A stretch of DNA of 64,000 nt from Phenylobacterium sp. (GTDB lineage Bacteria > Pseudomonadota > Alphaproteobacteria > Caulobacterales > Caulobacteraceae): the NCBI RefSeq assembly GCF_020402585.1, contig NZ_JADBZH010000125.1. The stretch is one strand, 5' to 3'. The position numbers and the translations under genes are program-made. Of the stretch, positions 1-61,227 are shown one piece after another. Below the pieces are notes generated by a model, which saw only the letters and a list, made by a program, of their open reading frames with translations, was not told the origin of the DNA and searched no databases. The stretch's first letter is position 1; each line of letters opens with the position of its first letter.

Positions 1-72
1 TGAGATTTCGTAAGCTCAGGGCGGAGGCGACGTCAGATGGGTCGGCGTGATCGGGCGCGTAAGGACCGACGT

Positions 73-236
73 GTTACGGTGACCCTCTACGAAACCCCAG
101 TACTGAGCGACTGAGCGCCTTCACCCTGGGGAGCTCCACCGACGGCCAGACTGGTGCGCGTCGATGTCCCAAGCCTGCTGCACAACAAGTCCCGATGCCT
201 TGAGTGACGATCTATTTCACACAGTGTCACCGTAAC
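73..236. repeat. Element U copy 1: ~164-bp repeat with terminal inverted repeats (GTTACGGTGAC... / ...GTCACCGTAAC)
   Basis: Aligns end to end with 2017..2180 at roughly 80% identity by eye. The 16-nt ends are inverted repeats (14/16 in this copy). It lies immediately 3' of the minus-strand ORF ending at 250. Confidence 0.8.
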
Positions 237-249
237 TCCCTCTCCGAGG

Positions 250-864
250 TCAAAGGTTGAGCGCGCCGGTCAGACCGAAATCCCGCAATGGCTTAAGTCC
301 CACGACAGCGCGGATCGCTGATAGTGTTTGCTGGCCGTTCCAAGGACCAACTGTGCGGGGGTTGCCGCCGACGTGCGTTGTCAGAACTAAGGTAACAGCC
401 GAGATTCCTTCGACCATCTCGGCGTCATGCAGATCAAACGCATTGACGGAATAACTCGTACCCGCGCGGTACACCTGCTCATCGACGAGCTGGAGTGCAA
501 AGCGCTCCTGAGTCTTCGATAGCTCGCTTAAGTGATCACCATACTCCACCCTGTAGAAGACATGCTCGCCAGACGGATCAGCCACGGAACGATAGGCCCG
601 GTGCCGGATAGCACCGTCGATGACGCGACTTTTCAAGTCGAATACGTGATCGTGAACTTCAAATCCCGGCTGTTCGACCCCACTACATTTCCAGAGATGA
701 AGGCGCAAGGCGTGGGGTGGAGTTTCGATCTTTACGACGTTGAAGCCCAGAGGATGGAGCGTAACGAGTTGATCGCCCAGCGGACTGGCAAGGACTGCAG
801 TTTCAAAATCACCCCCGTCGGCCGCGCGGCAAAGCTCGGAGTAGAGGGCTTCCAAATCAAACAT
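250..864 (-). CDS. Hypothetical protein, possibly a cupin/double-stranded beta-helix metal-binding fold
   Basis: ORF 250..909. The internal ATG at 864 overlaps the stop of the upstream ORF (ATGTTTGA), suggesting translational coupling. The pattern LHLW-x12-HDH ... DLHD resembles 3-His cupins. The region is visibly lower in GC than the rest of the window. An alternative start lies at 909. Confidence 0.6.
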   Translation of the reverse strand: MFDLEALYSELCRAADGGDFETAVLASPLGDQLVTLHPLGFNVVKIETPPHALRLHLWKCSGVEQPGFEVHDHVFDLKSRVIDGAIRHRAYRSVADPSGEHVFYRVEYGDHLSELSKTQERFALQLVDEQVYRAGTSYSVNAFDLHDAEMVEGISAVTLVLTTHVGGNPRTVGPWNGQQTLSAIRAVVGLKPLRDFGLTGALNL

Positions 865-1780
865 ACGGGTTCGCTCTTGAGTTCGCGGCCTTGAGAACTG
901 AGCGGACATCGGTTGAGTTTAAAGCGATAGCGAAGCCAAGCTGTTTCACAAGAGTTGGGATGGTGGTGAGGGATAGAGCGCCGGTCGACCATTCTGCTTT
1001 GCCCAAGTTGATTATTTGGCCACGCTCTGATGCGATGCGAAGATCCTCCTGTACGGAGGTGTAGAATTTCGTTCCTGCGGGCGAGAACCAGCCCGGCCAG
1101 CGCTTGTCCTCACGAGTCAACACAACACCGGTGTCGCTCAAGTCGTAACGAAAAAGGGAAAACTCAGGGAGGACGAACACGTGTACCTTTAGTAGGCGGT
1201 TGCCAGCTGCCGTTTGTCCCGCAACGAGAATGGTTGCGAGGATCTCGTTTCGGATTCGATCTGAATCCCAAGGGTCTTGTCCGGCATCCGGCAACGAGTT
1301 GCGATGGCTAGCATAGAGGTTGAGCACATCTTGGTTTGCCGGGTCAGGAAGTATGAGGTGGACGTGGCGAGCGACCTGGTCACGTTGCGCAGCCTCGGCC
1401 AAGCGAGGGAGAGCTTTGGCTCTGAACCATCGCGCTGACCGACCTCGGAACCAGTAGGCCTCGGTGTCTTTCAGGGCGTCGTCCAGCTTCGGGCCAATGT
1501 TCCAAGCATCGATAACCTGAAGATCTTCCTTGAAGCTCTCGGGTGGCGAGAGCAGGCGATACCAAACGAGCGCAATGAAGGCGAGAAGAACGCCTGCGCT
1601 CAAATTGTCGAGTAAGCCAGACCAATAGTGATCCAGCGTAAACAAGCAGGCGCGAGCCAGTGTTAGGAGGACTAACAGGACAACGAGTCCCACCCCATAA
1701 GCGAAGAGAAGCTTGGATCTCGCGCCATGCGGCTTTGCCGTCCGAAGTGCGATCGTCCCTATTATCTTGAGCGTATTCAT
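857..1780 (-). CDS. Hypothetical membrane protein with two N-terminal TM helices and a ~230-aa soluble C-terminal domain of unknown family
   Basis: 307-aa ORF. Hydrophobic stretches LLFAYGVGLVVLLVLLTLARACLF and LSAGVLLAFIALVWYRLL. I recognise no catalytic motif. It overlaps the downstream ORF by 8 nt. Confidence 0.65.
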   Translation of the reverse strand: MNTLKIIGTIALRTAKPHGARSKLLFAYGVGLVVLLVLLTLARACLFTLDHYWSGLLDNLSAGVLLAFIALVWYRLLSPPESFKEDLQVIDAWNIGPKLDDALKDTEAYWFRGRSARWFRAKALPRLAEAAQRDQVARHVHLILPDPANQDVLNLYASHRNSLPDAGQDPWDSDRIRNEILATILVAGQTAAGNRLLKVHVFVLPEFSLFRYDLSDTGVVLTREDKRWPGWFSPAGTKFYTSVQEDLRIASERGQIINLGKAEWSTGALSLTTIPTLVKQLGFAIALNSTDVRSVLKAANSRANPYV

Positions 1781-2016
1781 AGTGACGTGTTGTTCCCCAA
1801 CTCAGATCAGTAAGAATTTATACGGCCCGAGCCGCTGATCGCTACCCTCAAAAATGTACGCCGTCAGAACATTCGGGACAGGCGGGCTGCCTCCCTTGCG
1901 GAGAATTGGCCCCATCTGGGATGTTTATCTAGTCGGCGACTTTGCGGTATTGCAAGTGCAGGTGCTCGATATTCTGGCGTTTAATGCGCTTCTGTTCGGC
2001 CAGGATCTGTGCGGGT

Positions 2017-2180
2017 GTTACGGTGACACTGTACAAAACCCCGGTCCGATGTGACTGAGTTCCTTCACCCTGGCGAGTGCCGCCGATGGCCAGACTTGCG
2101 CGCGTCATTCTCCCAGGCCTGCCGCACAACAAGTCCAGATGCCGTGAGTGACGATCCATTTCAAACAGTGTCACCGTAAC
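2017..2180. repeat. Element U copy 2: 164-bp repeat with perfect 16-nt terminal inverted repeats (GTTACGGTGACACTGT / ACAGTGTCACCGTAAC)
   Basis: The terminal inverted repeats were read directly from the sequence. It is homologous to 73..236 over its full length. It contains four GTGAC/GTCAC motifs. Confidence 0.85.
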
Positions 2181-2230
2181 TCGCCATTCCGGCCTGGACC
2201 ATCAACCTGATGGCGGCCCAGGTCTGAAGC

Positions 2231-2401
2231 TCAGGACTTTCCGGTGAGGTCGGGGCGCGAGGCCAGAAACGCGGCTTTTTCAGCGGCGGTCAGCGTCTTT
2301 CCCGGCTTCATGCGCGACACCTTGGGCGTCGGCTTCGCAAATGTCCCGGGCTTTGGACTGCCCCCCGGGAGATCGGAGAGCCGCTTGACGGGAGGCTTCA
2401 T
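2231..2401 (-). CDS. Small Lys/Pro-rich hypothetical protein (56 aa)
   Basis: ORF 2231..2485. The internal ATG at 2401 is preceded by GAGGAC at about -7. It sits between U copy 2 and the partial U copy 3. No family was recognised. Confidence 0.35.
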   Translation of the reverse strand: MKPPVKRLSDLPGGSPKPGTFAKPTPKVSRMKPGKTLTAAEKAAFLASRPDLTGKS

Positions 2402-2503
2402 GACAGCGTCCTCGAATGGGAATCGGGTGGTCAGAGACTCGCAGATTCCGGCCCTCAGAGCATCTGCTGCGTGGCAGGGTTTCAAACCGTCCCGGCCATG
2501 GGG

Positions 2504-2561
2504 GTTGCGGTGACACTGTCCGAAACCCCCTCCTGTGCGACTGAATTCCTGCCCCCTAGCG
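2504..2561. repeat. Element U copy 3 (partial, left 58 bp only)
   Basis: gttgcggtgacactgtccgaaaccccc... aligns with the first ~59 bp of 2017..2180. The homology stops at the Nudix stop codon (cta at 2556-2558). Confidence 0.7.
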
Positions 2562-3185
2562 CCAGGCGAAAACGGGTTGCTCCAGGTCCGTCACCCGCGT
2601 GACGCGGCCTGCCACCAGCTCCCGCAGCTGGTAGACGACCGCCGCCGTGGGCGCGTGAATCTGGTGCTCATCCGAGATCCGGAGCCGGATGAGGGGCCGG
2701 TCGCTCTCGGGAATGGTCTCGAAGTCCACGGCGTCCGGGGCGGCGATGTAGTCGAGCCGGATCAGGTGGGTCGAGGCCACCTCCGCCGGGTTCGGCCGCA
2801 GGGCCGCCGGGTCCCGGAGCCAGGCGACCACCGGGGTGATCACATAGCCGGACCGGGTGGGGTAGTCGTCCAGGAGGCCGAGGATCTCGCTCTTCGGGAG
2901 GTCCAGCCCGACCTCTTCCGAGAGCTCCCTCAGGGCCGCCTCCTCGAGGGTCTCGCCGGGGTCCAGCCGTCCGCCGGGCAGGGCCCACTGGCCTGAATGG
3001 GCCCGCAGGCTGGCCGCGCGACGGGTCAGGACGAAGGCGGTCTGCCCCGAACCATCGTCCGCCACCGTCAGGGTCAGGGCCACGGCGGCCCGCTTCAGGT
3101 CACCGCCGTCGTGGGCGATGCGCGGGAAGGCCGCGCAGGCGCCGGCGAGGCGTTCACGGAAGGCGGGGGTGAAAGCGTGGGACAT
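2556..3185 (-). CDS. Nudix hydrolase (CoA pyrophosphatase-like)
   Basis: Nudix box GGRLDPGETLEEAALRELSEEVGL in the 209-aa ORF. Confidence 0.85.
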   Translation of the reverse strand: MSHAFTPAFRERLAGACAAFPRIAHDGGDLKRAAVALTLTVADDGSGQTAFVLTRRAASLRAHSGQWALPGGRLDPGETLEEAALRELSEEVGLDLPKSEILGLLDDYPTRSGYVITPVVAWLRDPAALRPNPAEVASTHLIRLDYIAAPDAVDFETIPESDRPLIRLRISDEHQIHAPTAAVVYQLRELVAGRVTRVTDLEQPVFAWR

Positions 3186-3240
3186 GCGGGCCTTGTCCTA
3201 GGCCCATTGAGGCCGGCCTGTCACCCCCGGCGCGGGCGCC

Positions 3241-4575
3241 TCAGGCGAAGGCCGACAGGAGAAGCCCTCCGCCGGCGCAGACGGCCAGCACCCTCAGGAC
3301 GCTCCAACGGGCGCCGAAGACCAGGACCAGCGCCAGGATCGCCAGCACCAGGGCGCGGACGTCGAGGCTCTCCGCGGCGGGGATCGGAAGGCTGAGGGGG
3401 CCCGCCTGCAGGGCTCCGACCCGGGCGAACAGGACGTGCAGGGCGAACCACAGGGACAGGCTCGCGATCGCGCCGACCACGGCCGCGGTCAGGGCGGACA
3501 GGGCCCCCCGCAGGAAGACTGACGCCTGCAGCCGCTCGATCCAGGGCGCGAAGGTGAAGATCCAGAGGAAGCAGGGGGCGAAGGTCACCCAGGTGGTCAG
3601 ACCCGCGCCCAGGAGACCCGCCACCAGGGGGGTGAAGGGCTCGGGCGCCCGGAAGGCGGCGAGGAAGCCGACGAACTGGGTCACCAGGATCAGCGGGCCC
3701 GGCGTGGTCTCGGCCAGGCCAAGGCCGTCGGCCATCTCCGGCGTGGAGAGCCAGCCAAACCCCTGGACCGCCTCCTGGGCCATGTAGGCGAGCACGGCGT
3801 AGGCGCCGCCGAAGGTCACGACCGCCAGCTGCGAAAAGAAGACGCCGATCTTCCAGAGCACATGGTCGGGACCGACCGCCAGGAAGACCGCCGCCAGGGG
3901 CGCGCCCCAGATCAGCCCCCAGACAAGGACGCTCCGGATCGACGCCGCCCAGGGCGAGGCGGCCCGGGCGCCGACATCGGTGGGTGGCGACACTCCCAGC
4001 CAGCCGGGGCGCACCCGCGCCACGAGCGCGCCCAGCACCGCCGCCATGCCGACCACCCAAGGAAAGGGCAGGTCCAGGGTGAAGAGGGCCAGGAAGGCCG
4101 CCGCCGCCAGCCCTTGCCTCAAGGGGGTGTCCAGGGCGCGTCCGCCGATCCGGATCAGGGCCTGCAGGACGATGGCGAGAACCGCCGCCTTCACCCCCAG
4201 GAAGAGGGCGGCGAACCAGGTCGCCTGGGCCGCCATCACATAGGCCAGGGTCAGGGCCAGGATCACCAGGGCCCCGGGCAGGATGAACAGAAGCCCCGCC
4301 GCCAGCCCGCCCCGCCCGCCGTGCAGCTTCCAGCCGATCCAGGTGGCCAGCTGCTGGGCCTCCGGCCCGGGAAGCAGGTGGCAGAAGTTGAGGGCGTTCA
4401 GGAACTGGTCTTCGGTCAGCCAGCGCCGCTCCTCCACGATCTCGCGGTGCATGAGGGCGATCTGACCGGCAGGGCCTCCGAAGCTGAGGCACCCAATGCG
4501 GGCGAAGGTTCTGACAAGCTCCCGGAAGTCGGGGGGGTGCAGGGTGTCCGACATCACTTCCTCACGCCCTGTCAT
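3241..4575 (-). CDS. chrA: Chromate ion transporter (CHR family)
   Basis: 444-aa polytopic protein with the CHR signature FGGPAGQIALMHREIVEERRWL near the N-terminus and a duplicated domain architecture. Confidence 0.85.
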   Translation of the reverse strand: MTGREEVMSDTLHPPDFRELVRTFARIGCLSFGGPAGQIALMHREIVEERRWLTEDQFLNALNFCHLLPGPEAQQLATWIGWKLHGGRGGLAAGLLFILPGALVILALTLAYVMAAQATWFAALFLGVKAAVLAIVLQALIRIGGRALDTPLRQGLAAAAFLALFTLDLPFPWVVGMAAVLGALVARVRPGWLGVSPPTDVGARAASPWAASIRSVLVWGLIWGAPLAAVFLAVGPDHVLWKIGVFFSQLAVVTFGGAYAVLAYMAQEAVQGFGWLSTPEMADGLGLAETTPGPLILVTQFVGFLAAFRAPEPFTPLVAGLLGAGLTTWVTFAPCFLWIFTFAPWIERLQASVFLRGALSALTAAVVGAIASLSLWFALHVLFARVGALQAGPLSLPIPAAESLDVRALVLAILALVLVFGARWSVLRVLAVCAGGGLLLSAFA

Positions 4576-5276: not shown

Positions 5277-5882
5277 TTAACCTTCGGAGTCCATCAGCGC
5301 ATCCACCTGCGCCTTCAGCACCCTCTCGGCGGACTGCCGGAGGGCCACGGCGCCTTCGCTTTGCAGACCCTTGCTGAGGGCGATCTGGAGCCCGAAGCCA
5401 TCGATGAGACCCATCAGGGCGTCCACCCTCAATGGGAGGTCGGCTTGGGTCCCCGCCAGGTCGCGTACGAGGGTCTGAAGGAGGGCGCGCCACTCCGCAT
5501 AGCGCGCAAGGTTCTCCTCGACGAGTGCGGGATTGCCCGCCGCAGCGCCCCAGAACGCCAGCCAGACCCGCCATTCCGCCAGCCGTTCGGGATCGAGCGG
5601 GAGCGCCTCCATCAGCACCGCCCAGAGGCGGTCCCGCGGCGAGGCGCCTCTCCCCGCCGCCCGCAACATGCGGGCCCCGGTCGTCTGGTGGGCGCGTCGC
5701 AGCATCGCCACCAGAAGGGCGTCCCGGCCCTCGAAATAATAGGTGATGGCCCCCGTCGTGCAGTCCGCGGCCCGGGCCAGGCGACGAAGCGTCGCGGCCT
5801 CGATGCCCTCTGACGCCACCAGGGCGAGGCTGGCGTCGAGGAGTTCACGTTTCCGGGCGTCGTGATCGACAAGTCTCGGCAT
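5277..5882 (-). CDS. TetR/AcrR family transcriptional regulator
   Basis: N-terminal HTH (ATLRRLARAADCTTGAITYYFEGRDALL). The ATG at 5882 was chosen because the upstream 48 codons of the ORF look non-coding. It is divergent from a small membrane protein gene. Confidence 0.8.
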   Translation of the reverse strand: MPRLVDHDARKRELLDASLALVASEGIEAATLRRLARAADCTTGAITYYFEGRDALLVAMLRRAHQTTGARMLRAAGRGASPRDRLWAVLMEALPLDPERLAEWRVWLAFWGAAAGNPALVEENLARYAEWRALLQTLVRDLAGTQADLPLRVDALMGLIDGFGLQIALSKGLQSEGAVALRQSAERVLKAQVDALMDSEG

Positions 5883-5991
5883 GGCTTGACGCGTAACATA
5901 CGTGATGCCAAAAGGGAAACATAACGATCGATATGCCAAGGAGAGAGAAGCGGTGACGGAAGTGCTGCTCAAGCGCGCGGGCGATGTTCCG

Positions 5992-6411
5992 ATGAGCCGG
6001 GCCCTCGCCCTGGGCATCGTGATCACCGATGGGGTCTTCTCCCTCTACTGGGCGCTCTCGGCCGCCTACCTCTCGGGGCTCGTGGACGTGCCCGACGCCT
6101 ACCTCTTCTCCGGGTATCATGATCGACACCTGGTCGCCTGGAACTGGTCGTTCTTCCCGCTGGACCTGGCGGCGACAGCATTCGGCGCCTGGGCCATCCT
6201 GGCCTCCCGGCGACAGGGCGAGTGGCGAACCCTCGCCGCCGTTTCGCTGGCGCTGTGGTCGACGGCGGGCGGGATGGCCGTGGCGTACTGGACCCTGATG
6301 GGCGAGTTCGACCCCTCCTGGTTCCTTCCGAACCTGGTTGTCTTCGTCTGGCCGCTCTTCTTCCTGCCAGGACTGGTCCGCCTGCGAACCGCGCAACCTC
6401 CTCCGCCATGA
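5992..6411 (+). CDS. Small integral membrane protein (about 4 TM), divergent from the TetR gene
   Basis: ORF 5902..6411. The start at ATG 5992 (MSRALALGIVITDG...) leaves a 109-bp divergent intergenic region. The last ~9 codons are encoded antisense to the WYL-gene remnant at 6386..6494. Confidence 0.6.
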   Translation: MSRALALGIVITDGVFSLYWALSAAYLSGLVDVPDAYLFSGYHDRHLVAWNWSFFPLDLAATAFGAWAILASRRQGEWRTLAAVSLALWSTAGGMAVAYWTLMGEFDPSWFLPNLVVFVWPLFFLPGLVRLRTAQPPPP

Positions 6412-8400: not shown

Positions 8401-11400
8401 CTACCAGGTGTCGATCCAGGCCCGCTTCTTGCCGGCCCGCGCCGGCTGGGGATTGGCTTTCAGGCCCATGGCCAGCCACCTGCGGGAGTCGGCCGGGTCG
8501 ATGACATCGTCGACCTCGAAGACCGTGCCGGCGTTCACCGCCCGCGCCCAGTCATAGGCGTCGGCCACCCACTTGTCGTAGAGGGCCCGCCGGGCCGGGA
8601 TGTCCTCGATGGCCTGCAGCTCGCCCCGGCGTCCCAGCTTGATCTGGCCTTCCAGCCCCATGCCGGCGAACTCGCCGGTGGGCCAGGCCACCGAGAAGAA
8701 GGTCTCGTCGAAGCTTCCCGCCGCCATGGCGATGGCGCCCAGGCCATAGGCCTTGCGCAGAACGATGTTGAAGACCGGGGTCGTGATGTTGGCGCCGGCC
8801 ACATACATCCGGGCGCAGTGGCGGATGAGGGCGGTCTTCTCGGCCTCGGGCCCCACCATGTTCCCGGGAGTGTCGATCAGGGACAGGAGGGGAATGTCGA
8901 AGGCGTCGCACAGCTGCATGAACCGGCTGGCCTTGTCGGCCCCGACGCTCTCGATGGCCCCGCCCGAGGTGGAGTTGCAGTTGTTGGCGATCACCCCGAC
9001 CGTCCGGCCCTCGATCCGGATCAGGGCGGTGACCATGGAGGTCGCCCAGCGCGGCCTCAGCTCCAGCATGGAGCCCACGTCGGCCAGGGTCTCGATGACC
9101 TTGCGGATGTCGTAGACCGCCCGGCGGTTCTCCGGGACGATGTGCCGCAGGGGCCTCTGGTCGTGGGCGGTCCAGCCCGAAACGGGCCCCTGGAAGTAGG
9201 ACAGGTAGGTCTTGGCCAGGGCGACGGCCTCAACCTCGTCCTCGGCCAGCAGGTCGATGACCCCGTTCGGCTCCTGGATGGAGACCGGCCCCACCTCGTC
9301 GGGCGAATAGGCCCCCAGGCCGCCGCCCTCGATCATGGCCGGACCGCCGATCCCCATGGAGGAATCCTTGGTGGCGATGATGACGTCGCAGGCGCCCAGC
9401 AGCACCACATTGCCGGCGAAGCAGTAGCCGGAGTTGATCCCGACGATGGGCACCAGCCCGGACAGCTTGCCCAGCTCGCGCCAGGTCCGGGTCGACAGCC
9501 CGCCCAGGGAGGTGACCCCGGACGAGCCGATGGGCGGGCCAGAGCCTCCGCCCGTACGGCCGCCGCCACCTTCCGAGAACAGCACCACCGGCAGCTTGCT
9601 GTGCTGGGCCACCCGCAGCATCCGGTCGGTCTTCTGGTGGCTCTTGGTCCCCTGGGTCCCGGCCAGGACCGTGTAGTCGTAGGCCACGACGGCGCAGCGG
9701 GCGGCCTCGGGACCGAAGAGGTCGCCATTCACCTGCCCGACACCGATCACCATGCCGTCGGCCGAGGTGCGCACAAGGCGCTCCTCAAGCACCTCCTGGG
9801 TGTCTGACCGCATCCGGCTGGCGGTGACCAGGGGGCCGTACTCGATGAAGCTGTCCGGATCGCAGAGGTCGGCCACGTTCTCCCGGGCGGTGCGGCGGTT
9901 CTGGGCCCGCCTCCGGCCCACGGCCTGGGGCCGCCCGGCGTCGCTGGCCAGGAAGTGCAGGCGCTGGACCTCGGCGAGGTCGGGGCGGATCTCGTCCGGG
10001 TCCGGGGCCCGGGCGCCGACATAGTCGCCCTCCACCTCGGCGGGCTCCACGAACAGGAGAGGGGTATCCTCGAAGACCGTGTCGCCAGGCTCCAGCGTGA
10101 CCTCGCGGACCACGCCTGAGACCTCGGAGACGATGACGTGCTCCATCTTCAGGGCCTCCATCACCGCCACGGGCTGGCCGGCGCGGACGGTGTCGCCGAC
10201 GGCGACGGAGAGGCTGAGGACCAGCCCCTGGAGGGGGGTCAGGACCGCCACGGTTCCGGCGGGCCCCTGCGCGGCCTCGCGGGGGGCGGCGAGGTCGGGC
10301 GCCGGCCTCGCGCCGCCGTCGCCCGGCTTCACGGACAGGACCGCCAGGGGATCGACCAGGTCGATCTTCGCCCCCGCCTTGCGCACCGCGCCGCCGGCCG
10401 GCTCGAAGTAGCGCGCCCGCGCGGCCTCGGCGGCCAGCAGGTCCGCCGCGTGCTCCTCCACATAGCGCGTGTGCAGGGTCCCCGCCGGCAGGGCGTCGCT
10501 GGCCAGCAGGGCGTCCAGGAAGTCGATGTTGGTCTTCACCCCGCCGATCTTGAACTCCGACAGGGCGCGCCGGGCCCGGGCCGTCGCCGCCGCAAGGTCG
10601 CGACCGTGGGTGATGACCTTGGCCAGCAGGGAGTCATACCGCGTCGGGGTGGCGTAGCCGGCATAGCCGTAGCCATCGACCCGGACCCCGGGCCCCGAGG
10701 GCGGATCGTAGGCGCTCAGGACGCCGCCCGAGGGGCGCGAGCCGCCGTCGGCGGTCATGGTCTCGAGGTTGACCCGCGCCTGGACCGCCGCCCCCTGGGG
10801 CGCGGGCGCGCCCCCGGCAAGCCCCAGGTCCGCCAGCCGGGCGCCGTCGGCGATGCGCAGCTGAAGCTCCACGAGGTCCAGGCCAAGGACCATCTCGGTC
10901 ACCGTGTGCTCCACCTGCAGGCGGGCGTTGGCTTCGATGAAGGCGAAGCGGGGCGGCGCGCCCGGCCGGGCGTCCACCAGGAACTCGATGGTTCCGAGAC
11001 CGCGGTATCCGGCGGCCTGTCCCAGCGCGACCGCCGCCGCGAGCATCTCCTGGCGCAGGGCTTCCGACAGGCCGAAGGCGGGGGCGATCTCGGTCACCTT
11101 CTGCCTCTGGCGCTGCAGCGAGCACTCGCGGTCCCACAGGTGGATGACCACGCCCTCGCCGTCGCCCAGGATCTGGACCTCGATGTGCCGGGCCCGGGGC
11201 ATCAGTTCCTCCACATAGAGGTCGCCCGAACCGAAGGCGGTCTTCGCCTCCGAGGTCGCCCGCTCGAAGGCGGCGGGGAGGTCCGCCGGGTCGCTGACCG
11301 GCCGCATGCCGCGCCCGCCGCCGCCGGCCACCGCCTTCAGCATCACCGCACCCCCGGCGCCGAGGGAGGCCAGGAAGGCCTGCGCCTCGTCCAGGGTGAC

Positions 11401-47854: not shown

Positions 47855-50269
47855 TCACCACTTGTACGTTGCCTCCGCCCGGACGAGGGCGGTGTCGCTG
47901 TCGCCGAAGGCCATCTCCCTCGGCACCCGGGCCGGCAGGGGCGTCAGTTGGGCCGGCCAACTTCCCGAGCGGGCCAGGGTGCGAACCTCGAGGTCGCCCG
48001 GACCCGCCGGCTGGAACTCAATGACCAGGGTCTCTGGCGGCGCCTGCAGGCGGATCCGGTTCCAGACCCCCGGAGAGGCCATGAGGCCGGCGGGCCGTCC
48101 GTTGACCGTGACCGCCGTCGCCAGGGTGTTGCTGCGCAGGTCAAGGGTCAGGCCGGCGGCGTCGGCGGGCGGCCGGATCACCAGCCGCTGGCGGTCATCG
48201 TCGAGGCCGGAAAGGGACATCTCAGCGCCCTTCAGGGGCGCCGGTCGGGCGGGCGCCGCCCAGAAGTCCCTGCGGGCGACCAGTGGGTCCTTGGTCCGTG
48301 AAGGCCGCCCGCCATCGCGGGACAGGACGGCGGCGGACCAGTCCGAGAGTCGCGGCTCGGTCGAGATCAAACGGGCTTCGGCGGCGCCTGCGTCCTGCAG
48401 ATGCTGGACCACGGTGACCTCGGGGTGTCTCTCGCTCCAGGGCGAGGTCAGCCTGAGGAAGATGGCTAGCCCCAGGCCGGCGATGAGGACCCCGGCGGTG
48501 ACCAGGCCGGCCCGGGCCTCCATCCGGCCCGGCTCGGGCGCGCCGTGGGCGAGGGGCCAGAGGCAGAAGGCGGCGAGCCAGGTGAAAAGGGCCAGAAGGG
48601 CGGGCAGGTCGAGCCCCAGGAAGACGCCGTGGCCGTAACCCAGGATCCAGGCGGTCACCGGCGTCGCGACCAGGGCTCCGGCAACGGGTGTGATCCAGGA
48701 CCGGGGGCTGGCGCCGAGCGTTGTCACGGCGGCCAGCAGGCTGGCCGCCAGCAGGGGCCAGGCGACCAGGAAGGCGGCCGCGGGGGTGACCACCTGCAGC
48801 GCCAGGGCGACCACCAGGCCTGTCAGCAGCATCCCGGTCCAGGCCGGAGCCACCCGGACAGGGGGGCCGAAGGTCATGAAGCCCGCGACAGCGGCGGCGA
48901 CCCCCAGGGCCACGGCGGCGATGTCCCATCCGAAGGGAAGGGCTGCGGCGCCGGCGGCCAGGGCCAGGGCCCCGGCCTGAAGCCGGCTTCGGCCCTGCCC
49001 CGTAAATCCAGGCGCAAGGACAAGCACGCTGAGGGCGATGAGAAGGAGGGCCGTCTCCCAGACCGTTACCCGGGCCAGAAGCGACCTCTGCTCCAGGAAG
49101 CCCGCCCCGTCCGCCGCAATCCGCCGGGCCAGGTGCAGGAGGGCCCCGGAGAGGAGCAGGAGGTAGAGGGCGGCCCCGACGCCGCGAACCACGCCAGGCG
49201 CATCAAGGGCGCCTCTGCGGCGGGCGTTCCGGACGGCGAGGGCCAGGAGGCCGGCGCAGACCGCCAGGACCAGCCAGCCGGCGGCGGCGGGGTAGGCGAT
49301 CATGAGGTCGCCGAAGACATGGGAGAAGACCTTGTCAGGCCCCCTGGCCGGCAGGGGGCTGGAACCGGAGAGCTCAAGGGCCACCGCCGTGACCTGGTCG
49401 CCCAGGTGCTGGAGGCTTCCGGCATCCAGGTTGGCTGGGGTCGACGTGGCCGCGTGGTAGTCGAACTGACGGCCGATGAAGGCGAAGTTCATTCCGTCGA
49501 TCCGCGCGGCCCTCGCGATGGTGAAGTCCGTGTCGTTTGGCATGGCCGAATAGAGCAGGACCGAGAGGGAGGAGGCCGAGGGCTGGCTGGCCGTCCGCTG
49601 CAGGAGGTCGATGGTCCCCTGGTTCTGGGCGCCGGTCTGGAACATCTGCACGAGGCCGCCGCCGCCCCTCGCCTCCATGTTCACCAGGAAGCCGATGCGG
49701 CCGGCCAGGGGATGGCGGGCGAAGAAGGCCTCCGCGCCCAGGAGCCCTGCCTCCTCGCCATCCGTGAAGAGGAAGATGACGTCCCGCGCGGGCGTTCCGC
49801 GCGCCTTGAGAACCCGGGCTATCTCCAGCGCAGTGGCGACGCCGGCCGCGTCGTCGGCGGCCCCCGGCGAGCCAGGCACGCTATCGTAGTGCGCCATCAG
49901 GGCCAGGGCGGGCGCAGACCGGTCGCGTCCGGGAAGGACCCCAATGATGTTCTCGATCCGGCCGCCGAGGAAGACGGGTTGCTCAACCCGCGTGACCTTG
50001 CGGAGGCTGAGGTCGGCCTGGACCTGGGGCGAAAGGCCCAGGGCGGTCATGCGGGAGGCGATGTAGTCGCGCGCCCGGGCGTTCTCCACGGAGCCGGTGG
50101 GATGGGGCTCCCTGGCGATCACGCCGACGTCTGTCAGCGCCCGGCCCGCAGAGAAGACGTCCGCCGGCGCAGTCGCCGGCTTTGGCGACGGCGGCCTGCC
50201 CGCAACCAGGGCCAGGATCAGCGCGACGACCAGGGTGAGGCCGAGGACGGCGAGCCGGTTCATCTTCAT
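47855..50269 (-). CDS. M28 family metallopeptidase fused to a polytopic membrane domain and a C-terminal extracytoplasmic domain
   Basis: N-terminal TM, M28 motifs (HYDSV, FLFTDGEEAGLLGA), then ~8-9 TM helices and a ~230-aa tail. Confidence 0.8.
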   Translation of the reverse strand: MKMNRLAVLGLTLVVALILALVAGRPPSPKPATAPADVFSAGRALTDVGVIAREPHPTGSVENARARDYIASRMTALGLSPQVQADLSLRKVTRVEQPVFLGGRIENIIGVLPGRDRSAPALALMAHYDSVPGSPGAADDAAGVATALEIARVLKARGTPARDVIFLFTDGEEAGLLGAEAFFARHPLAGRIGFLVNMEARGGGGLVQMFQTGAQNQGTIDLLQRTASQPSASSLSVLLYSAMPNDTDFTIARAARIDGMNFAFIGRQFDYHAATSTPANLDAGSLQHLGDQVTAVALELSGSSPLPARGPDKVFSHVFGDLMIAYPAAAGWLVLAVCAGLLALAVRNARRRGALDAPGVVRGVGAALYLLLLSGALLHLARRIAADGAGFLEQRSLLARVTVWETALLLIALSVLVLAPGFTGQGRSRLQAGALALAAGAAALPFGWDIAAVALGVAAAVAGFMTFGPPVRVAPAWTGMLLTGLVVALALQVVTPAAAFLVAWPLLAASLLAAVTTLGASPRSWITPVAGALVATPVTAWILGYGHGVFLGLDLPALLALFTWLAAFCLWPLAHGAPEPGRMEARAGLVTAGVLIAGLGLAIFLRLTSPWSERHPEVTVVQHLQDAGAAEARLISTEPRLSDWSAAVLSRDGGRPSRTKDPLVARRDFWAAPARPAPLKGAEMSLSGLDDDRQRLVIRPPADAAGLTLDLRSNTLATAVTVNGRPAGLMASPGVWNRIRLQAPPETLVIEFQPAGPGDLEVRTLARSGSWPAQLTPLPARVPREMAFGDSDTALVRAEATYKW

Positions 50270-50315
50270 TTCCCTCCCCCGGGAACGGCGGCCGAACTTA
50301 TCGCGGCGTCCGCCG

Positions 50316-50346
50316 GAAACAAGAACGCCCGCCTTGCGGGCGGGCG
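50316..50346 (-). terminator. Rho-independent terminator downstream of ctrA
   Basis: Minus strand: CGCCCGCC-cgcaa-GGCGGGCG followed by TTCTTGTTTCC. Confidence 0.7.
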
Positions 50347-50372
50347 CTCATAGACCATGTCGGGGCCTGTGG

Positions 50373-51068
<696 letters not shown>

Positions 51069-51145
51069 ACTCGCCTCCTTGCCCCTCTCGCTCCGGCCCT
51101 GATTCGCTTCTCGACAGGGCCCAGCAGCGTCACCCTGCCAGAGGG

Positions 51146-51255
51146 TTAATTTAAGAAAGGTTAACGTCGGTAACCTTGATGGCGAAATCGTTAACCCGCT
51201 TTGCGAATCACCGGCAAGCCCTCTTGGCGCCGGGCGGGCCGGGGCGTGTTGAATC
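51146..51255 (-). promoter_or_regulatory. ctrA upstream region with clustered TTAA/TTAACC half-sites and two GANTC sites
   Basis: TTAA at 51146, 51151, 51161 and 51191, and GGTAACC at 51169-51175. GAATC at 51205 and 51251. This is the only such TTAA cluster in the window. Spacings are N6/N11, not the canonical N7. Confidence 0.4.
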
Positions 51256-51371
51256 TTTTGTGATTGGACAGGCGGGGCGAACGCCTGGGGCTTTTCCGGA
51301 CTGGCGCAGGGTCAGCCAGGCCCCATATCAGGAAGGTCCGGAAATCGGTCCGGCGGATGGGAGACACTCGC

Positions 51372-51632
51372 ATGTCCTTGGATCTGGATGCTGATCCCGG
51401 TCCGTCAGTCCTCGCGGAGGCCGGGGCTGGCCTGACCCTCGCGGACGGTTGCGGGAACGAGGATCTTTCCGCTCCCCTCGAGGCGCTGCCGCCCCAGCCC
51501 TTCAGCCTGTCCGATGAGGTGCGCTTGAGGCCCGGCCGCAGCCTTGGCGGCGTCCTTCTTGGCGGGGTGGTCCTGGGATTCCTGATCGGGCGCACACTTG
51601 GTCTTCGGGGCCCACCGACGCGGGGAGTCTGA
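51372..51632 (+). CDS. Small hypothetical protein with a C-terminal TM anchor (86 aa), upstream of fliI
   Basis: ATG 51372 preceded by GGGAGA. C-terminal LGGVLLGGVVLGFLIG hydrophobic segment. GC3 is moderately high. Confidence 0.45.
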   Translation: MSLDLDADPGPSVLAEAGAGLTLADGCGNEDLSAPLEALPPQPFSLSDEVRLRPGRSLGGVLLGGVVLGFLIGRTLGLRGPPTRGV

Positions 51633-51717
51633 CCCCGCTTCACAACAGGGTCTTCATGGCTGATTAAGCCTGTTGGAGACAAGCTTCGGGCTTGAGTCGC
51701 CTGCGGGAGGCCGCGTC

Positions 51718-53055
51718 TTGCAGAACCTGGTCGAGGCCGTCGAGAAGCTGGATCCGCTGGTCGTGACCGGACGGGTCGCAGCGGTTTCCGGCCTTCTTAT
51801 CGAGGCCCGGGGCGGGATGACCCGGCTGGCCGTCGGCGCCCGGGCCGAGATCCAGCGAAGAGGCGCTTCGCCTCTCCCGGCGGAAGTGGTGGGCTTCCGG
51901 GACTCCCGGGCCCTGTTGATGCCCTTCGGTCCCGTGGAGGGGGTTGCCCCTGGCGCCGCGATACACATCGAGCCCGACGGGGCCAACGTCCGGCCCACAA
52001 CGGCCTGGCTCGGCCGGATCGTCAACGCCTTCGGGGAGCCCATCGACGGCAAGGGCCCGCTTCCCCAGGGGCTCGCCGCCTATCCGCTTCGCGCGGCGCC
52101 TCCCCCCGCTCATGCGCGCGACCGTGTCGGAGCCCGGCTGGACCTCGGCGTCCGCTCCATGAACGTCTTCACCACCTGTTGCCGGGGGCAGCGCCTCGGG
52201 GTCTTCGCAGGGTCCGGCGTCGGAAAGTCCGTTCTTCTCTCCATGTTGGCCCGACAGTCAGAGTGCGACGCCGTCGTGGTGGGCCTGATCGGGGAGCGGG
52301 GCCGTGAGGTCCGGGAGTTCATCGAGGAAACCCTGGGCGAGGAGGGCCTGAAGCGCGCCGTTGTCGTTGTCGCCACGTCTGACGAGCCTGCGCTGAAGCG
52401 CCGCCAGGCCGCCTACATGACCCTGGCCATCGCCGAGTACATGCGCGACCAGGACCTGGAGGTCCTTTGCCTGATGGACTCCGTGACGCGTTTTGCGATG
52501 GCCCAGCGCGAGATCGGCCTGGCGGCGGGGGAGCCGCCGACGACAAAGGGCTACACCCCGACGGTGTTTACTGAACTGCCCAAGCTCCTGGAGAGGGCTG
52601 GTCCGGGGCCGATCCGCCCTGACGGGACCCGAGGCGGGCCCATCACGGGCCTGTTCACCGTCCTGGTGGACGGGGATGATCACAATGAGCCGATTGCAGA
52701 CGCCGTTCGAGGTATCCTCGACGGGCACATCGTCATGGAGCGCGCCATTGCAGAGCGGGGCAGGTTCCCAGCCATCAATGTCCTGAAGTCCATCAGCCGG
52801 ACCATGCCCGGCTGCCAGGACACGAGGGAGCGCCAGATTGTCCGGGATGCGCGACAGGTTCTTTCGGCCTACACCAACATGGAAGAGCTGATCCGGATCG
52901 GCGCCTACCGGACCGGGTCCGACCCGCTCGTCGACCGGGCGATCGCCCTGAACCCGGCGGTGGAAGCCTTCCTCGGTCAGGACAAGGACGAGGTCACGAG
53001 TCTTCCTGACGCCTTCTCGCGCCTCGAACAGATTCTCGCCGGCGGCGCCCCGTGA
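51718..53055 (+). CDS. fliI: Flagellum-specific ATP synthase FliI
   Basis: Walker A GSGVGKS and Walker [10 protein letters not shown]. The TTG at 51718 is preceded by GGGAGG at -7; an alternative TTG lies at 51673. Confidence 0.93.
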
Positions 53056-53477
53056 GCTGGGAGCAGAGCCTCATCCGGATTGCCGGCTACGAGGTGGAGA
53101 CCCGCCAGAAGCGCCTCGCCGAGGTCGTGGCTCGACGTGAGGCCGCAGAGATGAGGCTGGTGATGCTGGATGCCGAGATCGAGGCGGAGGTCGCCTACAT
53201 CCGGAGCGATCCCCTCGCCACCTTTCACCAGGCTGGGTACATGGCAGGCTGCAAGGAGCGGCGGATCCGTTTCCTGAGCGACATCGACCGGGTGGCGGCG
53301 GAGGAGGCCGGCGCCCGCGACGCGCTGGCGGAAGCCTTCGAGTCCCAGAAGAAGTACGAGCACGTGGCGGCGGACATGGCCCGTCGCAAGGCGAAGGAGG
53401 CCGCGCGCCGGGAAACCGCCGAGCTGGACGAGCTCGGCGTTCGCCAGGCGAGCCGGCCCCCGGCCGGCGGCGTCTGA
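53052..53477 (+). CDS. fliJ: Flagellar export protein FliJ
   Basis: 141-aa coiled-coil protein overlapping the fliI stop (GTGA). The position is conserved after fliI. Confidence 0.8.
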
Positions 53478-53480
53478 GGA

Positions 53481-53852
53481 TCAGTCGCGGGACGGTGCGT
53501 TCAGCTCGGGATCGTTTGCCCGGCGCAGAGCGTGAATGTCGTCGCTGAGGCGGAAGAGGGCGACATAAAGCTCACAGAAGGCCCGCCAGAGCAGGGCCAG
53601 CACCCCGATTACCAGAGCCCCGCCGACGAGGACGCCCATTCCCAGAAGGAAGCCGAAGGGTGACTGCTCGCGGATCGCGACGCCGACCGCTGTCCCGATG
53701 AAGCCGAAGCCGACCAGGGCCGTGATCCCCAGGCCCGCCCAGTAAATGAGGTGGATCACCTGCCGGGTCATGAGGGTTTCGAAGGACATCAGGTCCCAGA
53801 GCATGTCTGGCGTGAACTTCGCCGGCCGGCTGTTCGGTTTCAGATCAAACAT
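53481..53852 (-). CDS. DUF4282 domain-containing membrane protein
   Basis: FETLMTRQVIHLIYWAGLG... with hydrophobic helices; 123 aa. Confidence 0.7.
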   Translation of the reverse strand: MFDLKPNSRPAKFTPDMLWDLMSFETLMTRQVIHLIYWAGLGITALVGFGFIGTAVGVAIREQSPFGFLLGMGVLVGGALVIGVLALLWRAFCELYVALFRLSDDIHALRRANDPELNAPSRD

Positions 53853-53952
53853 CAGCTTTCCATGTGCTGGACGTCGCCGGCGCGGGAGGGAAACTCGCTA
53901 GCAGTCCCTCGGGCAGCCTGCAACATGGCCTGCGGAATCCCTTGGCCTCGCA

Positions 53953-56052: not shown

Positions 56053-56063
56053 CGTTCAGCTCC

Positions 56064-57431: not shown

Positions 57432-57461
57432 GTTTCCGTCTCCGTTACGTCAACCAGGTCC

Positions 57462-57797
57462 TCAGACCTGGGTGTCGCCGTCCTTGATGATTTCCGTCAT
57501 GGTCACGCCCAGGCGCTCGTCGACGATCACGACCTCGCCGCGCGCCACCAGGCGATTGTTGACGTAGATGTCGATGGCTTCGCCCACCCGGCGGTCCAGC
57601 TCGAGCACGCTGCCGGAGTTCAGCTGGAGCAGCTGTGAGACGCTGAGGGTGGCGCGACCCAGAACCGCCGAGATGGAGACCGGGACGTCGAAGATCGGGG
57701 CGAGGTCGCTGGCCGTCTTCTCCCCATCGTCGCCTCCGGTGGCGGCCGGGTTGCCGTCAGGGCCCAGCTCGTCGAGTTCCAGTTCGTTCTCGCTCAT
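57462..57797 (-). CDS. fliN: Flagellar motor switch protein FliN
   Basis: SpoA domain LSVSQLLQLNSGSVLELDRRVGEAIDIYVNNRLVARGEVV. Confidence 0.93.
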   Translation of the reverse strand: MSENELELDELGPDGNPAATGGDDGEKTASDLAPIFDVPVSISAVLGRATLSVSQLLQLNSGSVLELDRRVGEAIDIYVNNRLVARGEVVIVDERLGVTMTEIIKDGDTQV

Positions 57798-57803
57798 GAT
57801 GTC

Positions 57804-61107: not shown

Positions 61108-61227
61108 GGTCCGCAGTCTCCCACCGCCGGCCGCAGGGTGTGCAGTTCCTGCCGACGTGTAGGCAGGATTTACCCAGTAGTTGGTAAATGAGACGTTTAC
61201 GCGGTCGTCAGATGCGAGGGCCCCAGC

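Follow-up and report, generated by a model that had tools for sequence, protein, structure and literature searches.

The window analysed here, a stretch of 64,000 nucleotides, holds a small array near its left end: reading leftwards on the minus strand, a Nudix hydrolase gene is followed by a partial copy of a repeated element that we call U, a 56-aa open reading frame (ORF), a full U, a two-gene module and a second full U. The features of this region, in that order, are:

2556-3185, minus strand: Nudix hydrolase gene encoding 209 aa (Pfam NUDIX, E 2.6e-18), the conserved proximal anchor of the array
2504-2561, minus strand: partial U of 58 nt, aligning to U positions 106-164, with the right terminal repeat at 2504-2519
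~2181-2503: cassette C4, with the 56-aa ORF at 2231-2401 on the minus strand
2017-2180, minus strand: U copy 2, full, a non-autonomous TIRtron derivative
2086-2151, plus strand: transposase gene remnant within U copy 2; its translation covers ATG..MARLARVILPGLPH, a deletion junction, a frameshift and a stop
857-1780, minus strand: first gene of cassette C12, encoding 307 aa with a hydrophobic N-terminus
250-909, minus strand: second gene of cassette C12, a 219-aa ORF and the conserved partner of the 307-aa gene
73-236, minus strand: U copy 1, full, with which the array ends in this strain
142-207: counterpart of the 2086-2151 transposase gene remnant in U copy 1, where ACG stands in place of ATG
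3-50, plus strand: 3' end of an HxlR-family regulator gene (tblastn and the gene table of contig L001), converging on U copy 1

The initial annotation of this DNA had described two full 164-nt copies of U and a 58-nt part at the Nudix stop codon, and all three were recovered at the positions listed. The full copies share 84% identity over 168 nt (71-238 and 2015-2182) with a start-to-start spacing of 1944 nt, and both end in a 16-nt inverted repeat, GTTACGGTGACACTGT, which is indeed perfect in copy 2 (2017-2032 / 2165-2180), while in copy 1 the arm at 221-236 is exact and that at 73-88 carries two mismatches. A fifth arm lies in the partial copy (2504-2519); these five compare with 0.11 expected by chance in 64 kb, and the other 61 kb of the window contain none. 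The cassette DNA is also less GC-rich than its surroundings, as had been remarked (0.572 for positions 1-2503 vs 0.696 for the remaining window).

All cassette ORFs of the window lie on the minus strand, co-oriented with the Nudix gene; the initial annotation was right on this point for the window but not for arrays in general, where Pfam-supported cassette genes occur on both strands (~5 vs ~9). Neither the 56-aa C4 product nor the 307-aa C12 protein has a match in Pfam, NCBIfam or PADLOC. The former is 95-100% conserved in three relatives (L006, L017 and L024), and the latter belongs to a very rare family, with 30 homologues among 5.8 billion proteins, none of them carrying a Pfam domain. 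The true start of the second C12 gene is probably Met16, giving a gene at 250-864 with an 8-nt overlap with the first, and in L047 and L049 homologues of the 307-aa gene are likewise followed by partner genes, 46-52% identical to the second C12 gene. The 3' end of the Nudix gene holds a palindrome, GTCACCCGGGTGAC, that resembles the U terminal core GGTGAC/GTCACC.

The partial U lies directly at the Nudix stop codon and overlaps it. This copy had been thought to keep its Nudix-proximal end, but the opposite is the case: the retained end faces the first cassette, and the Nudix-proximal 105 nt are gone. A full U occupies this position in L002, L003, L012, L016 and L023, and the same truncated allele recurs in L006, L010, L017, L020, L024 and L029. 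Microhomology at the junction (TAGGGGGAAC vs CAGGGTGAAGGAAC) suggests a simple deletion, which most likely removed positions 1-105 of a full copy together with a 25-nt spacer that is present in relatives. The Nudix gene directly precedes U in L002, L003, L010, L016, L017, L020, L023 and L029, and L029 has a U just upstream of the Nudix gene as well. At the other edge, L001 (99.95% identical to the window) reaches 3.3 kb further left through HxlR, NmrA and two UGSC genes with no further U, contrary to the suggestion that the array continues there; the close relative L017 has six extra units ahead of the same UGSC genes. The HxlR-NmrA pair varies between relatives although no U follows it, being missing in L002 and replaced by other DNA in L005, L006 and L010.

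Among 185,579 species genomes (596 Gb), U was found in 8 loci from 5 metagenome-assembled genomes (MAGs), all of one lineage, with one to four clustered pattern matches per MAG; metagenomes yielded 22 U loci (23 pattern hits, L027 being without U). Nearly all copies stand in co-oriented arrays of two to eight, hosted by a freshwater Phenylobacterium-like lineage at two chromosomal hot spots, one from Nudix to UGSC and the other (locus 2) from DUF3035 to TraB/MutL. The arrays hold U plus full or truncated parent elements, and neither plasmids nor phages yielded U or element DNA. No recombinase Pfam family is present in the gene tables of the Nudix locus (L001) or of locus 2 (10-kb flanks). The ORF-plus-U array anchored at the Nudix 3' end, as first proposed, is genuine and present in many genomes.

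Approximately 25-30 different cassettes of 0.3-2.4 kb lie exactly between U termini, each with one to three complete genes of unrelated functions, many with their own leader regions; one is a Gp49/HTH_37 toxin-antitoxin-like pair. Their GC content (0.48-0.67) compares with 0.59 for U and 0.70 for the host. Comparison of close relatives revealed both whole-unit replacement and presence/absence polymorphism; all comparison loci come from short-read assemblies (metagenome or MAG contigs), where cassettes may be skipped or swapped on account of a 164-nt repeat. The Nudix-proximal cassettes C4, C2 and C7 are common to most genomes; depending on the relative, C4 is followed by C12, C22 or C27, and the U next to Nudix by C2, C28 or C32. 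One-unit differences separate L010 from L020 and L036 from L039; locus 2 holds C20, C3 or C6+C3, and no cassette is common to both hot spots. U copies from one array differ as much as copies from different genomes (identity 0.889 within a contig vs 0.873 between contigs), so that the arrays look accreted rather than duplicated in place. Partial terminal U copies that retain the outer terminus recur at both array ends and in the solitary L033 element, and fragments of the Nudix 3' end follow the last U in L003 (41 nt), L005 and L012 (~140-190 nt), L010 and L020 (~60 nt), and L011 and L018 (~20 nt). Crossovers could be mapped for three unit-level differences and fell at U positions 24-46, at ~85-105 and in the last ~45 nt; being spread over three different parts of U, they indicate that the visible turnover is homology-driven or reflects the assembly path, and is not site-specific. 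No circular or empty-site junctions were seen.

The origin of U lies in a transposase gene. The initial annotation had named an HUH nuclease among the enzymes that might accompany the repeats, and U is itself a miniature, non-autonomous, internally deleted copy of a ~0.78-kb TIRtron, whose gene for a RAYT-like Y1 HUH tyrosine transposase (TIRYT, PF01797, ~235 aa) is bounded by the same inverted repeats (16-22 nt). The transposase coding strand within U is opposite to the cassette ORFs of the window, and the remnant aligns with the N-terminal part of the 235-aa Y1 protein (L008 and P0001). Relative to its parent, U lacks ~610 bp, with approximately codons 15-218 removed in one ancestral deletion; the identical junction was found in all 35 distinct full copies aligned, which implies that U multiplied after the deletion. 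The left repeat of U encodes the conserved C-terminus of the transposase (..DLFHTVSP-stop), which accounts for its conservation across the whole protein family. Full-length elements with the ends of U were identified in L008 (3196-3973, bounded by GTTTCGGTGACACTGT and ACAGTGTCACCGTAAC), L022 and L026, whereas tblastn detected no full-length transposase copy in the window.

The transposase has >7,000 homologues (~234 aa), and Tyr119 is invariant. Intact relatives score 37.9 bits against Y1_Tnp (PF01797) and the array copy 22.1 (cut-off 23); the NCBIfam model for REP-associated tyrosine transposases gave 75 bits, below its cut-off of 80. Among solved structures, the best relative is E. coli TnpA_REP (4er8), and no helix-turn-helix domain was detected by Pfam in the C-terminal part. 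Most TIRYT relatives are single chromosomal genes among housekeeping genes, the family being present in 11 of 72,556 plasmid records, all at <40% identity. Solitary relatives (61-75% identity) are flanked by the same repeats and carry the motif MPNHVHF, whereas every array-linked copy carries MPNPVHF. This change of HUH to PVH removes one metal-binding His, and the local, array-linked enzyme may be inactive as a result.

As single-stranded DNA, copies 2 and 1 of U are predicted to fold with -32.7 kcal/mol (z -3.0) and -34.3 kcal/mol (z -3.3), respectively. Terminal repeats are perfect in only 15 of the 35 distinct copies, and changes in the terminal stem are never compensated (40 of 40 variant positions are one-sided); the alifold covariation term for U is 0, and covariation supports no internal hairpin. 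Almost no variation is seen in a 25-nt block at the right end. The ends read GTTACGG...CCGTAAC, the 16-nt arm starting with GTTAC and not being self-complementary, and the outer repeat motif GGGGTTAC agrees with the published GGGGWSAS at seven of eight positions. Flanks are conserved (GGGA|GTTAC and GTAAC|CCC) and may belong to the repeat itself. Across ~50 distinct left and ~55 distinct right ends of U, no direct repeats indicative of a target-site duplication were found, nor was a defined target motif. At the single locus of the window, a weak G-richness falls on the transposase sense strand. The co-orientation of U copies fits a strand-specific mechanism acting on single-stranded DNA.

TIRtrons have been described as RAYT-like Y1 HUH genes with terminal inverted repeats and often the motif GGGGWSAS, whose derived repeats form small families that are 'single, dimeric or grouped' (PMC3733652, PMC6006769), and the parent of U probably belongs to subclass 2.1 of Quentin et al. 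2018 (PMC6006769). Like these, the element described here has terminal inverted repeats rather than REP hairpins around its gene, a 3' repeat that overlaps the gene end and a protein with a C-terminal extension beyond the Y1 core. It differs in that its derived repeats are deletion derivatives containing the gene start, not bare repeats, that they are few and form arrays of one orientation at fixed hot spots, interspersed with foreign gene cassettes, and that the array clade carries the PVH variant. We found no report of cassette arrays for TIRtrons in the literature. REPtrons resemble the present system in their protein (TnpA_REP being the closest solved structure and RAYT the closest NCBIfam model), in a transposase-like gene flanked by inverted repeat copies that are thought to be mobilised in trans, and in non-autonomous doublets that fold into a long hairpin; however, REPs are hairpins of 20-40 nt with a GTAG tag in hundreds of dispersed copies, whereas U has plain terminal repeats of 16-22 nt and occurs as a handful of clustered copies per genome that bound gene cassettes. 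REPtron membership was rejected, the 16-nt arm lacking self-complementarity and U lacking high-copy dispersal. With the IS200/IS605 family the element shares the Y1 HUH family PF01797 and miniature derivatives that retain both ends (PATEs there), and the strand-specific single-strand 'peel and paste' of that family would account for the strict co-orientation of U. Those elements have subterminal hairpins instead of the clear terminal inverted repeats of U, are inserted on the 3' side of a fixed tetra- or pentanucleotide with no duplication of the target, and are dispersed and often on plasmids, from which the TIRYT family here is almost absent.

Modular, shuffled arrays of gene segments bracketed by directly oriented short non-autonomous elements are also known from integron mobilisation units, TIME-COMP and pdif modules, in which the element can be acted on in trans or can be a portable recombination site. 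There the enzyme is a DDE (Tn3-type) transposase or XerC/D, as opposed to the Y1 HUH protein here, and U units differ further in sharing single U copies, lying in chromosomal hot spots rather than on plasmids and showing no target-site duplications. Like a MITE, U is a short, TIR-bounded deletion derivative of an autonomous element; the target-site duplication of a MITE composite is missing from U units.

Taken together, the arrays are a real, swappable and apparently undescribed type of gene array, distinct from integrons. We favour, with modest confidence, an explanation in which TIRtron-derived U copies bound arrays that are joined by a Y1 enzyme, accreted and pruned by homologous recombination. 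The arrays would grow by accretion of units, each a segment with its own U, from a diverse pool, and the joining would be both end-specific and strand-specific. By analogy with IS200/IS605 TnpA and with TnpA_REP, both of which act in this way at their hairpins, a Y1 enzyme acting in trans would most likely cut and rejoin single-stranded DNA at U termini, such that two co-oriented ends define one mobilisable segment, while units would be lost and reshuffled by ordinary homologous recombination between U copies.

A possible, although clearly less probable, alternative is that U copies are passive, decayed MITE-like relics that provide portable homology, with every gain, loss and exchange of cassettes being RecA-dependent, the DNA being taken up from related strains and no enzyme acting at U ends today. 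Crossover intervals that vary between events, an altered HUH motif in every array-linked copy, the decay of many terminal repeats with no change compensated and the absence of a cassette common to the two hot spots all speak for it, and the near-invariant block at the right end could be a minimal recombination substrate. It leaves unexplained, however, the exact bounding of unrelated foreign segments by U termini, the near-constant co-orientation of the copies and the recurrence of partial termini with the outer end; furthermore, frequent recombination or conversion should homogenise the U copies of one array, yet these are no more alike than copies from different genomes, and at 82-89% identity over 164 nt U is a poor RecA substrate.

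A further proposal, which we regard as rather doubtful, is that the arrays are a dedicated platform for gene capture, integron-like in its workings but based on HUH chemistry. In this scheme, the outer U terminus is where the TIRYT would nick single-stranded DNA, and two co-oriented termini would delimit a cassette with its U, to be released in circular form and reinserted at any terminus of a U; hot spots in the chromosome would thereby gather and exchange foreign genes, and the clade-wide change from HUH to PVH would mark a shift from self-transposition to a role at the level of the host.

Three further explanations fare worse. Site-specific integration of tandem islets at an attB in the Nudix 3' end, with U as the att region at the junctions and a tyrosine or serine integrase encoded elsewhere, would explain why a complete Nudix gene precedes the array and Nudix 3' fragments follow the last U, resembling an attL/attR duplication; we nevertheless judge it very unlikely, since the duplicated piece has lengths between 20 and 190 nt where an att core would be fixed, no Nudix gene is present at the second hot spot (DUF3035 to TraB/MutL), the annotated 4-10-kb flanks of either locus encode no integrase, U is a transposase-gene relic with inverted-repeat ends rather than a copy of a gene end, and one U lies just upstream of Nudix (L029). 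That there is nothing special here, only a generic dispersed intergenic repeat or a metagenome-assembly artefact beside a small island, is highly improbable: although the related loci are all MAG or metagenome contigs and 164-nt repeats can mislead short-read assemblers, the remaining 61 kb of the window are free of U, the 596 Gb of genomes gave very few matches in one lineage, the divergence among U copies (82-98% identity) is enough for assembly, and identical arrangements came independently from many samples (the window, L001 and L017; L004, L010 and L020; L022, L026, L013 and L037-L043). The initial annotation had itself named a dispersed repeat as the outcome that would count against its proposal; this is excluded, U being rare and clustered at cassette boundaries.

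The attC sites of integrons measure 57-141 nt and have the form R''(RYYYAAC)-L''...L'-R'(GTTRRRY), with a conserved folded structure. Integron cassettes are mostly promoterless and of one orientation, newcomers being added at the proximal end, and an IntI tyrosine recombinase lies beside the array in an integron but not in a CALIN. The U arrays resemble integron arrays in their short gene cassettes, each followed by a co-oriented, imperfect palindrome of ~0.1-0.2 kb, in their strain-variable content and miscellaneous cargo, including the toxin-antitoxin-like pair (Gp49/HTH_37) that is common in integrons, and in that both would rely on enzymes acting on folded single strands; a recombinase-like gene also lies at one array edge at locus 2, transcribed away from the array. 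That U could be an atypical attC site on which an IntI integrase acts, in a true integron or CALIN, is nonetheless barely credible, as U is 164 nt long with ends GTTACGG...CCGTAAC instead of RYYYAAC...GTTRRRY, a poor match in reversed order, contains a transposase gene start, shows neither extrahelical-base architecture nor compensatory pairs in its stem, bounds genes in both orientations, many with their own leaders, and has no IntI in the annotated flanks, and its most conserved cassettes are the proximal ones, the opposite of an attI-fed array. The observation that the core sequences are not integron-like is borne out, and the likeness to integrons and CALINs first drawn does not extend to membership.

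Few 'domesticated' transposase genes are as widespread in bacteria as those of the RAYT and TIRYT type, whose role in the host is a long-standing question. In the abundant lake bacteria considered here, foreign gene blocks that can be interchanged at fixed chromosomal sites are bounded exactly by relics of a TIRYT gene. If a Y1 enzyme builds these arrays, they would give the RAYT/TIRYT protein family a concrete role and would represent a second, mechanistically unrelated route to integron-like capture, by single-strand nicking as opposed to tyrosine recombination; if homologous recombination alone is responsible, the locus still illustrates how a miniature element can turn an intergenic spacer into a hypervariable gene-exchange site. 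With sites of 164 nt and a protein of 235 aa, the system is small and well defined, and hence directly testable.

The array adjoining the Nudix gene was correctly described in the initial annotation as regards its copies of U (the 164-nt repeat bounded by inverted repeats), its partial copy, its ORFs and its low GC content (0.572 for positions 1-2503 versus 0.696 for the remaining window). The features are as follows.

73-236: U copy 1, one terminal arm with two mismatches
2017-2180: U copy 2, terminal repeat perfect
2504-2561: partial U (58 nt), corresponding to U positions 106-164 and overlapping the Nudix stop codon
2556-3185, minus strand: Nudix gene (Pfam NUDIX, E 2.6e-18)

The two full copies share 84% identity across 168 nt and end in a 16-nt inverted repeat, GTTACGGTGACACTGT, whose arm occurs five times in the 64 kb relative to 0.11 expected by chance, all five in the array region. 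The U copies enclose a 56-aa ORF and two overlapping genes for proteins of 307 and 219 aa, each read from the minus strand; the true start of the 219-aa ORF is probably Met16 (window 864). Pfam, NCBIfam and PADLOC returned no match for the 56-, 219- and 307-aa proteins, and a promoter/terminator scan of 1-3300 revealed none above chance. The partial copy retains the end facing away from the Nudix gene, not the proximal end as had been claimed; relatives carry a full U at this site, and microhomology at the junction suggests a simple deletion. Nor does the array appear to run on to the left: L001, a contig 99.95% identical to the window and reaching 3.3 kb further left, carries HxlR, NmrA and two UGSC genes in this extension and no further U. 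An exact look-up of the Nudix protein for strain variants recovered only L001 and one 1.9-kb contig.

Several neighbouring genes and sequences were also recorded. Together, the overlapping 307-aa and 219-aa genes make up a conserved module (window 250-1780, minus strand; L047 6001-7414; L049 6001-7564) of a very rare family; 5.8 billion proteins yielded 30 matches, and domain searches gave none. In L049 the module is flanked by Z1/DUF4420 genes on one side and by AAA_5-McrBC and a DNA methylase on the other, a defence-island setting in which it could represent a defence or conflict system not yet characterised. The HxlR-NmrA pair (L001 6394-7722; the HxlR 3' end is window 3-50) lies between the last U and the conserved UGSC genes and has a lower GC content of 0.56-0.66; L002 lacks it, L005, L006 and L010 have other genes in its place, and it is thus variable, though no U follows it. 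The distal flank of the array also carries a cluster of palindromic repeats from a second, unrelated family, CCACCTCCCCC...GGGGGAGG (L002 2196-2290; L003 5500-5700). Window 5701-6150 shows a local GC dip (0.61-0.63), and GC is broadly lower (~0.67) across the last 16 kb (48000-64000).

The origin of U is apparent at L008, L022 and L026, where its two ends enclose about 0.78 kb coding for a 235-244-aa protein of the Y1_Tnp/IS200-like family (PF01797), on the strand opposite to that of the window's cassette ORFs. Intact-motif relatives score 37.9 bits against PF01797 and the array copy 22.1 (cut-off 23); the NCBIfam REP-associated tyrosine transposase model gives 75 bits (cut-off 80), and the best solved relative of the array protein is E. 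coli TnpA_REP (4er8). U keeps the start of the transposase gene (plus strand 2086-2151, MARLARVILPGLPH), after which it runs out of frame, and its left repeat codes for the conserved C-terminus of the transposase, DLFHTVSP-stop. The deletion junction is identical in all 35 distinct full U copies, indicating that a single deletion derivative was multiplied. More than 7,000 proteins of about 234 aa make up the transposase family; five solitary members (61-75% identity) are found among housekeeping genes, bounded by the same repeat. The five solitary loci (L033-L035, L044 and L045) have no cassette arrays around them, and the most that any shows close by is one tiny additional pair of repeats. 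Because this parent element fits the published description of the TIRtron/TIRYT, a RAYT-like gene between terminal inverted repeats with the outer motif GGGGWSAS (PMC3733652, PMC6006769), and is a member of this kind, U is almost certainly a miniature TIRtron. The parent element counts REPtrons (RAYT plus REP/REPIN) among its relatives, with IS200/IS605 further removed.

The array is no integron, nor is U an attC site: attC sites have the form RYYYAAC...GTTRRRY, whereas U ends in GTTAC...GTAAC. Single U copies fold at -32.7 and -34.3 kcal/mol (z about -3), and this stability comes only from the terminal repeat. The 16-nt arms are perfect in 15 of 35 distinct copies, arm variants are one-sided at 40 of 40 positions with none compensated, the RNAalifold covariation term was zero for U (20-35 copies across the covariation tests), and Rfam gave no match on 1-3300 even at E up to 1. 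The reading of U as a structured RNA or attC-like site was dropped on the grounds that the fold derives from the terminal repeat alone and covariation is absent.

U is rare and clustered, which excludes a generic dispersed repeat. A scan of 185,579 genomes (one per species) for the right-end pattern detected only eight loci, in five Phenylobacterium/Caulobacteraceae MAGs, and freshwater-lake metagenomes contributed another 23 loci with the pattern, U being matched in 22 of them. Full and truncated elements form co-oriented clusters of two to eight copies (nhmmer and tblastn maps), with a single inverted U copy at the edge of contig L029. Two hot spots were distinguished.

Locus 1, from ChrA-Nudix to two UGSC genes: window, L001-L006, L010-L012, L016-L018, L020, L023, L029
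Locus 2, from DUF3035 to TraB/MutL: L008, L013, L022, L026, L036-L043

About 25-30 different segments of 0.3-2.4 kb lie between U copies, with boundaries that coincide with the U termini and a GC content of 0.48-0.67 versus 0.69-0.74 in the flanks. Each holds between one and three complete genes, functionally unrelated, which encode SHMT, a transglutaminase-like protein, a Gp49/HTH_37 toxin-antitoxin-like pair, an APH-type kinase, DUF4337, DUF433 and DUF4336 proteins, a HAD hydrolase, a methyltransferase, a phosphatase, an orphan NuoH, LysR with an aldo-keto reductase, or a TetR/SDR/GST/hydrolase set. Co-orientation of the cassette ORFs, true of the window, does not hold in general, as cassette genes across the arrays occupy both strands. 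The nuoH cassette (L015 236-1481) is a solitary, complete gene with a GC content of 0.52, whose product is 100% identical to a full-length 355-aa protein of Phenylobacterium sp. MAGs (21 member sequences), while no other NuoH exceeds 73% identity to it; it is an orphan paralogue of a respiratory-complex subunit, borne as a cassette.

Presence/absence polymorphism between relatives was abundant in the array contents at both loci: array content differs between relatives whose flanks are 93-99% identical. Numbering the cassettes, C4 is followed by C12, the 307-aa/219-aa pair (window, L001, L017), by C22 (L006) or by C27 (L024); Nudix/U is followed by C2 (L002, L003, L012, L016), C28 (L023) or C32 (L015); L010 has one extra unit, C29, relative to L020; and locus 2 contains C20 (L008), C3 (L036) or C6 and C3 (L022, L037-L042). 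With U no generic dispersed repeat and polymorphism abundant, neither outcome that the initial annotation named as refuting was observed. Cassette order and single-unit differences are provisional, since the comparison loci are all short-read metagenome or MAG contigs. The same arrangements were found independently (L022, L026, L013 and L037-L043; L004, L010 and L020; window, L001 and L017), and this recovery in many samples, together with U copies divergent enough to assemble, makes the U-bounded cassettes robust. The arrays are very probably genuinely variable.

How the cassettes are exchanged is indicated by evidence pulling in both directions. Exact segment ends at U, near-invariant orientation, U divergence and partial ends call for joining that is both end-specific and strand-specific. 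The unrelated foreign segments that end exactly at U termini number in the dozens. Outside many U ends are 8-21-nt partial copies of the same end, in which the outer terminus is kept (..GA|GTTACGG, ..CCGTAAC|CCC) and the inner breakpoints vary (L017 2701, 4415, 5234, 5698 and 7817; L012 1022; L024 529-550; L022 4916; L028 36-56); such copies also occur at the solitary element L033 from another genus-level lineage (9916-9952 and 10691-10720). At one and the same site, L008 has two and L022 three copies of a 9-nt unit, CGTAACCCC. The Y1 HUH protein is the only candidate enzyme in view; cleavage and rejoining of single-stranded DNA at fixed positions beside folded ends is established for its relatives IS608/ISDra2 TnpA and E. 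coli TnpA_REP (PMC8266576). By analogy with these relatives, two co-oriented U termini would delimit a segment that the Y1 HUH protein would excise and reinsert. The main counter-argument is the HUH-to-PVH change: all array-linked transposases, full-length (L008 3170-3904, L022, L026, L036-L043) and truncated (L003, L007, L011, L017, L018, L019), down to 76% identity, read MPNPVHF, whereas all solitary relatives read MPNHVHF, so one metal-binding histidine is missing across the array clade. The 235-aa ORF is intact in more than 10 MAGs despite this change. Also against such a role, the window has no full-length transposase copy, the two loci share no cassette and no carrier was found: the exact U pattern had no match in viral contigs, blastn of the element against plasmids and of U against phages gave no match, and plasmids carry few and only distant members of the protein family. 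Cassette capture by the Y1 enzyme is a tentative proposal, somewhat less probable than not.

Homologous recombination between U copies was weighed against this proposal. The parental U switch in one-unit differences maps to U positions 24-46 (L010/L020), to about 85-105 (L036/L039) and to the last ~45 nt (L025/L032/L022); a fixed crossover point within U was rejected for these three differences, which fall in three different intervals. Switch points that vary in this way typify homologous recombination among U copies, or else an assembler's route through a repeat. Mean U identity was 0.889 within contigs (n=20 pairs) versus 0.873 between contigs (n=575); as U copies on the same contig are no more alike, the arrays did not arise by local duplication and have not been evened out by frequent recombination; they look to have been assembled from units each with its own U.

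The rival of tandem integrative islets, in which islands enter an attB at the Nudix 3' end by means of an integrase encoded elsewhere, is disfavoured since the Nudix 3' fragment that follows the last U varies among genomes (about 20, 41, 60 or 140-190 nt; L003 5443-5483, L005 1091-1236, L012 1154-1291, L010 5949-6008, L011 755-775), which speaks against a fixed att core, and the annotated flanks contain no integrase. A complete Nudix gene precedes the array. In L029 (oriented, 1275-1285) a U stands 6 nt ahead of the start codon of Nudix, and in L017 and L023 unrelated DNA precedes a ChrA 3' fragment and Nudix; the Nudix anchor gene may itself have been duplicated or moved as a unit.

Taken together, the earlier interpretation is partly borne out: the cassette array is real and a Y1 HUH enzyme, the nuclease suspected earlier, is implicated; it falls as an integron, and site-specific exchange is at most putative. 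The best explanation as a whole, in which the Y1 enzyme would build the arrays at U ends and recombination between U copies would prune them, carries slightly better than even confidence. The arrays are functionally like integrons, pdif modules and MITE-bounded composite units, yet they fail the defining tests of each. Full-text literature searches found no prior report of cassette arrays of this sort; the nearest concerns picocyanobacteria, in which TnpA_REP genes are loosely associated with prochlorosin genes (bioRxiv 10.1101/2020.03.09.984088). As far as our literature search could tell, miniature TIRtron derivatives that punctuate variable cassette arrays at conserved chromosomal hot spots are undescribed.
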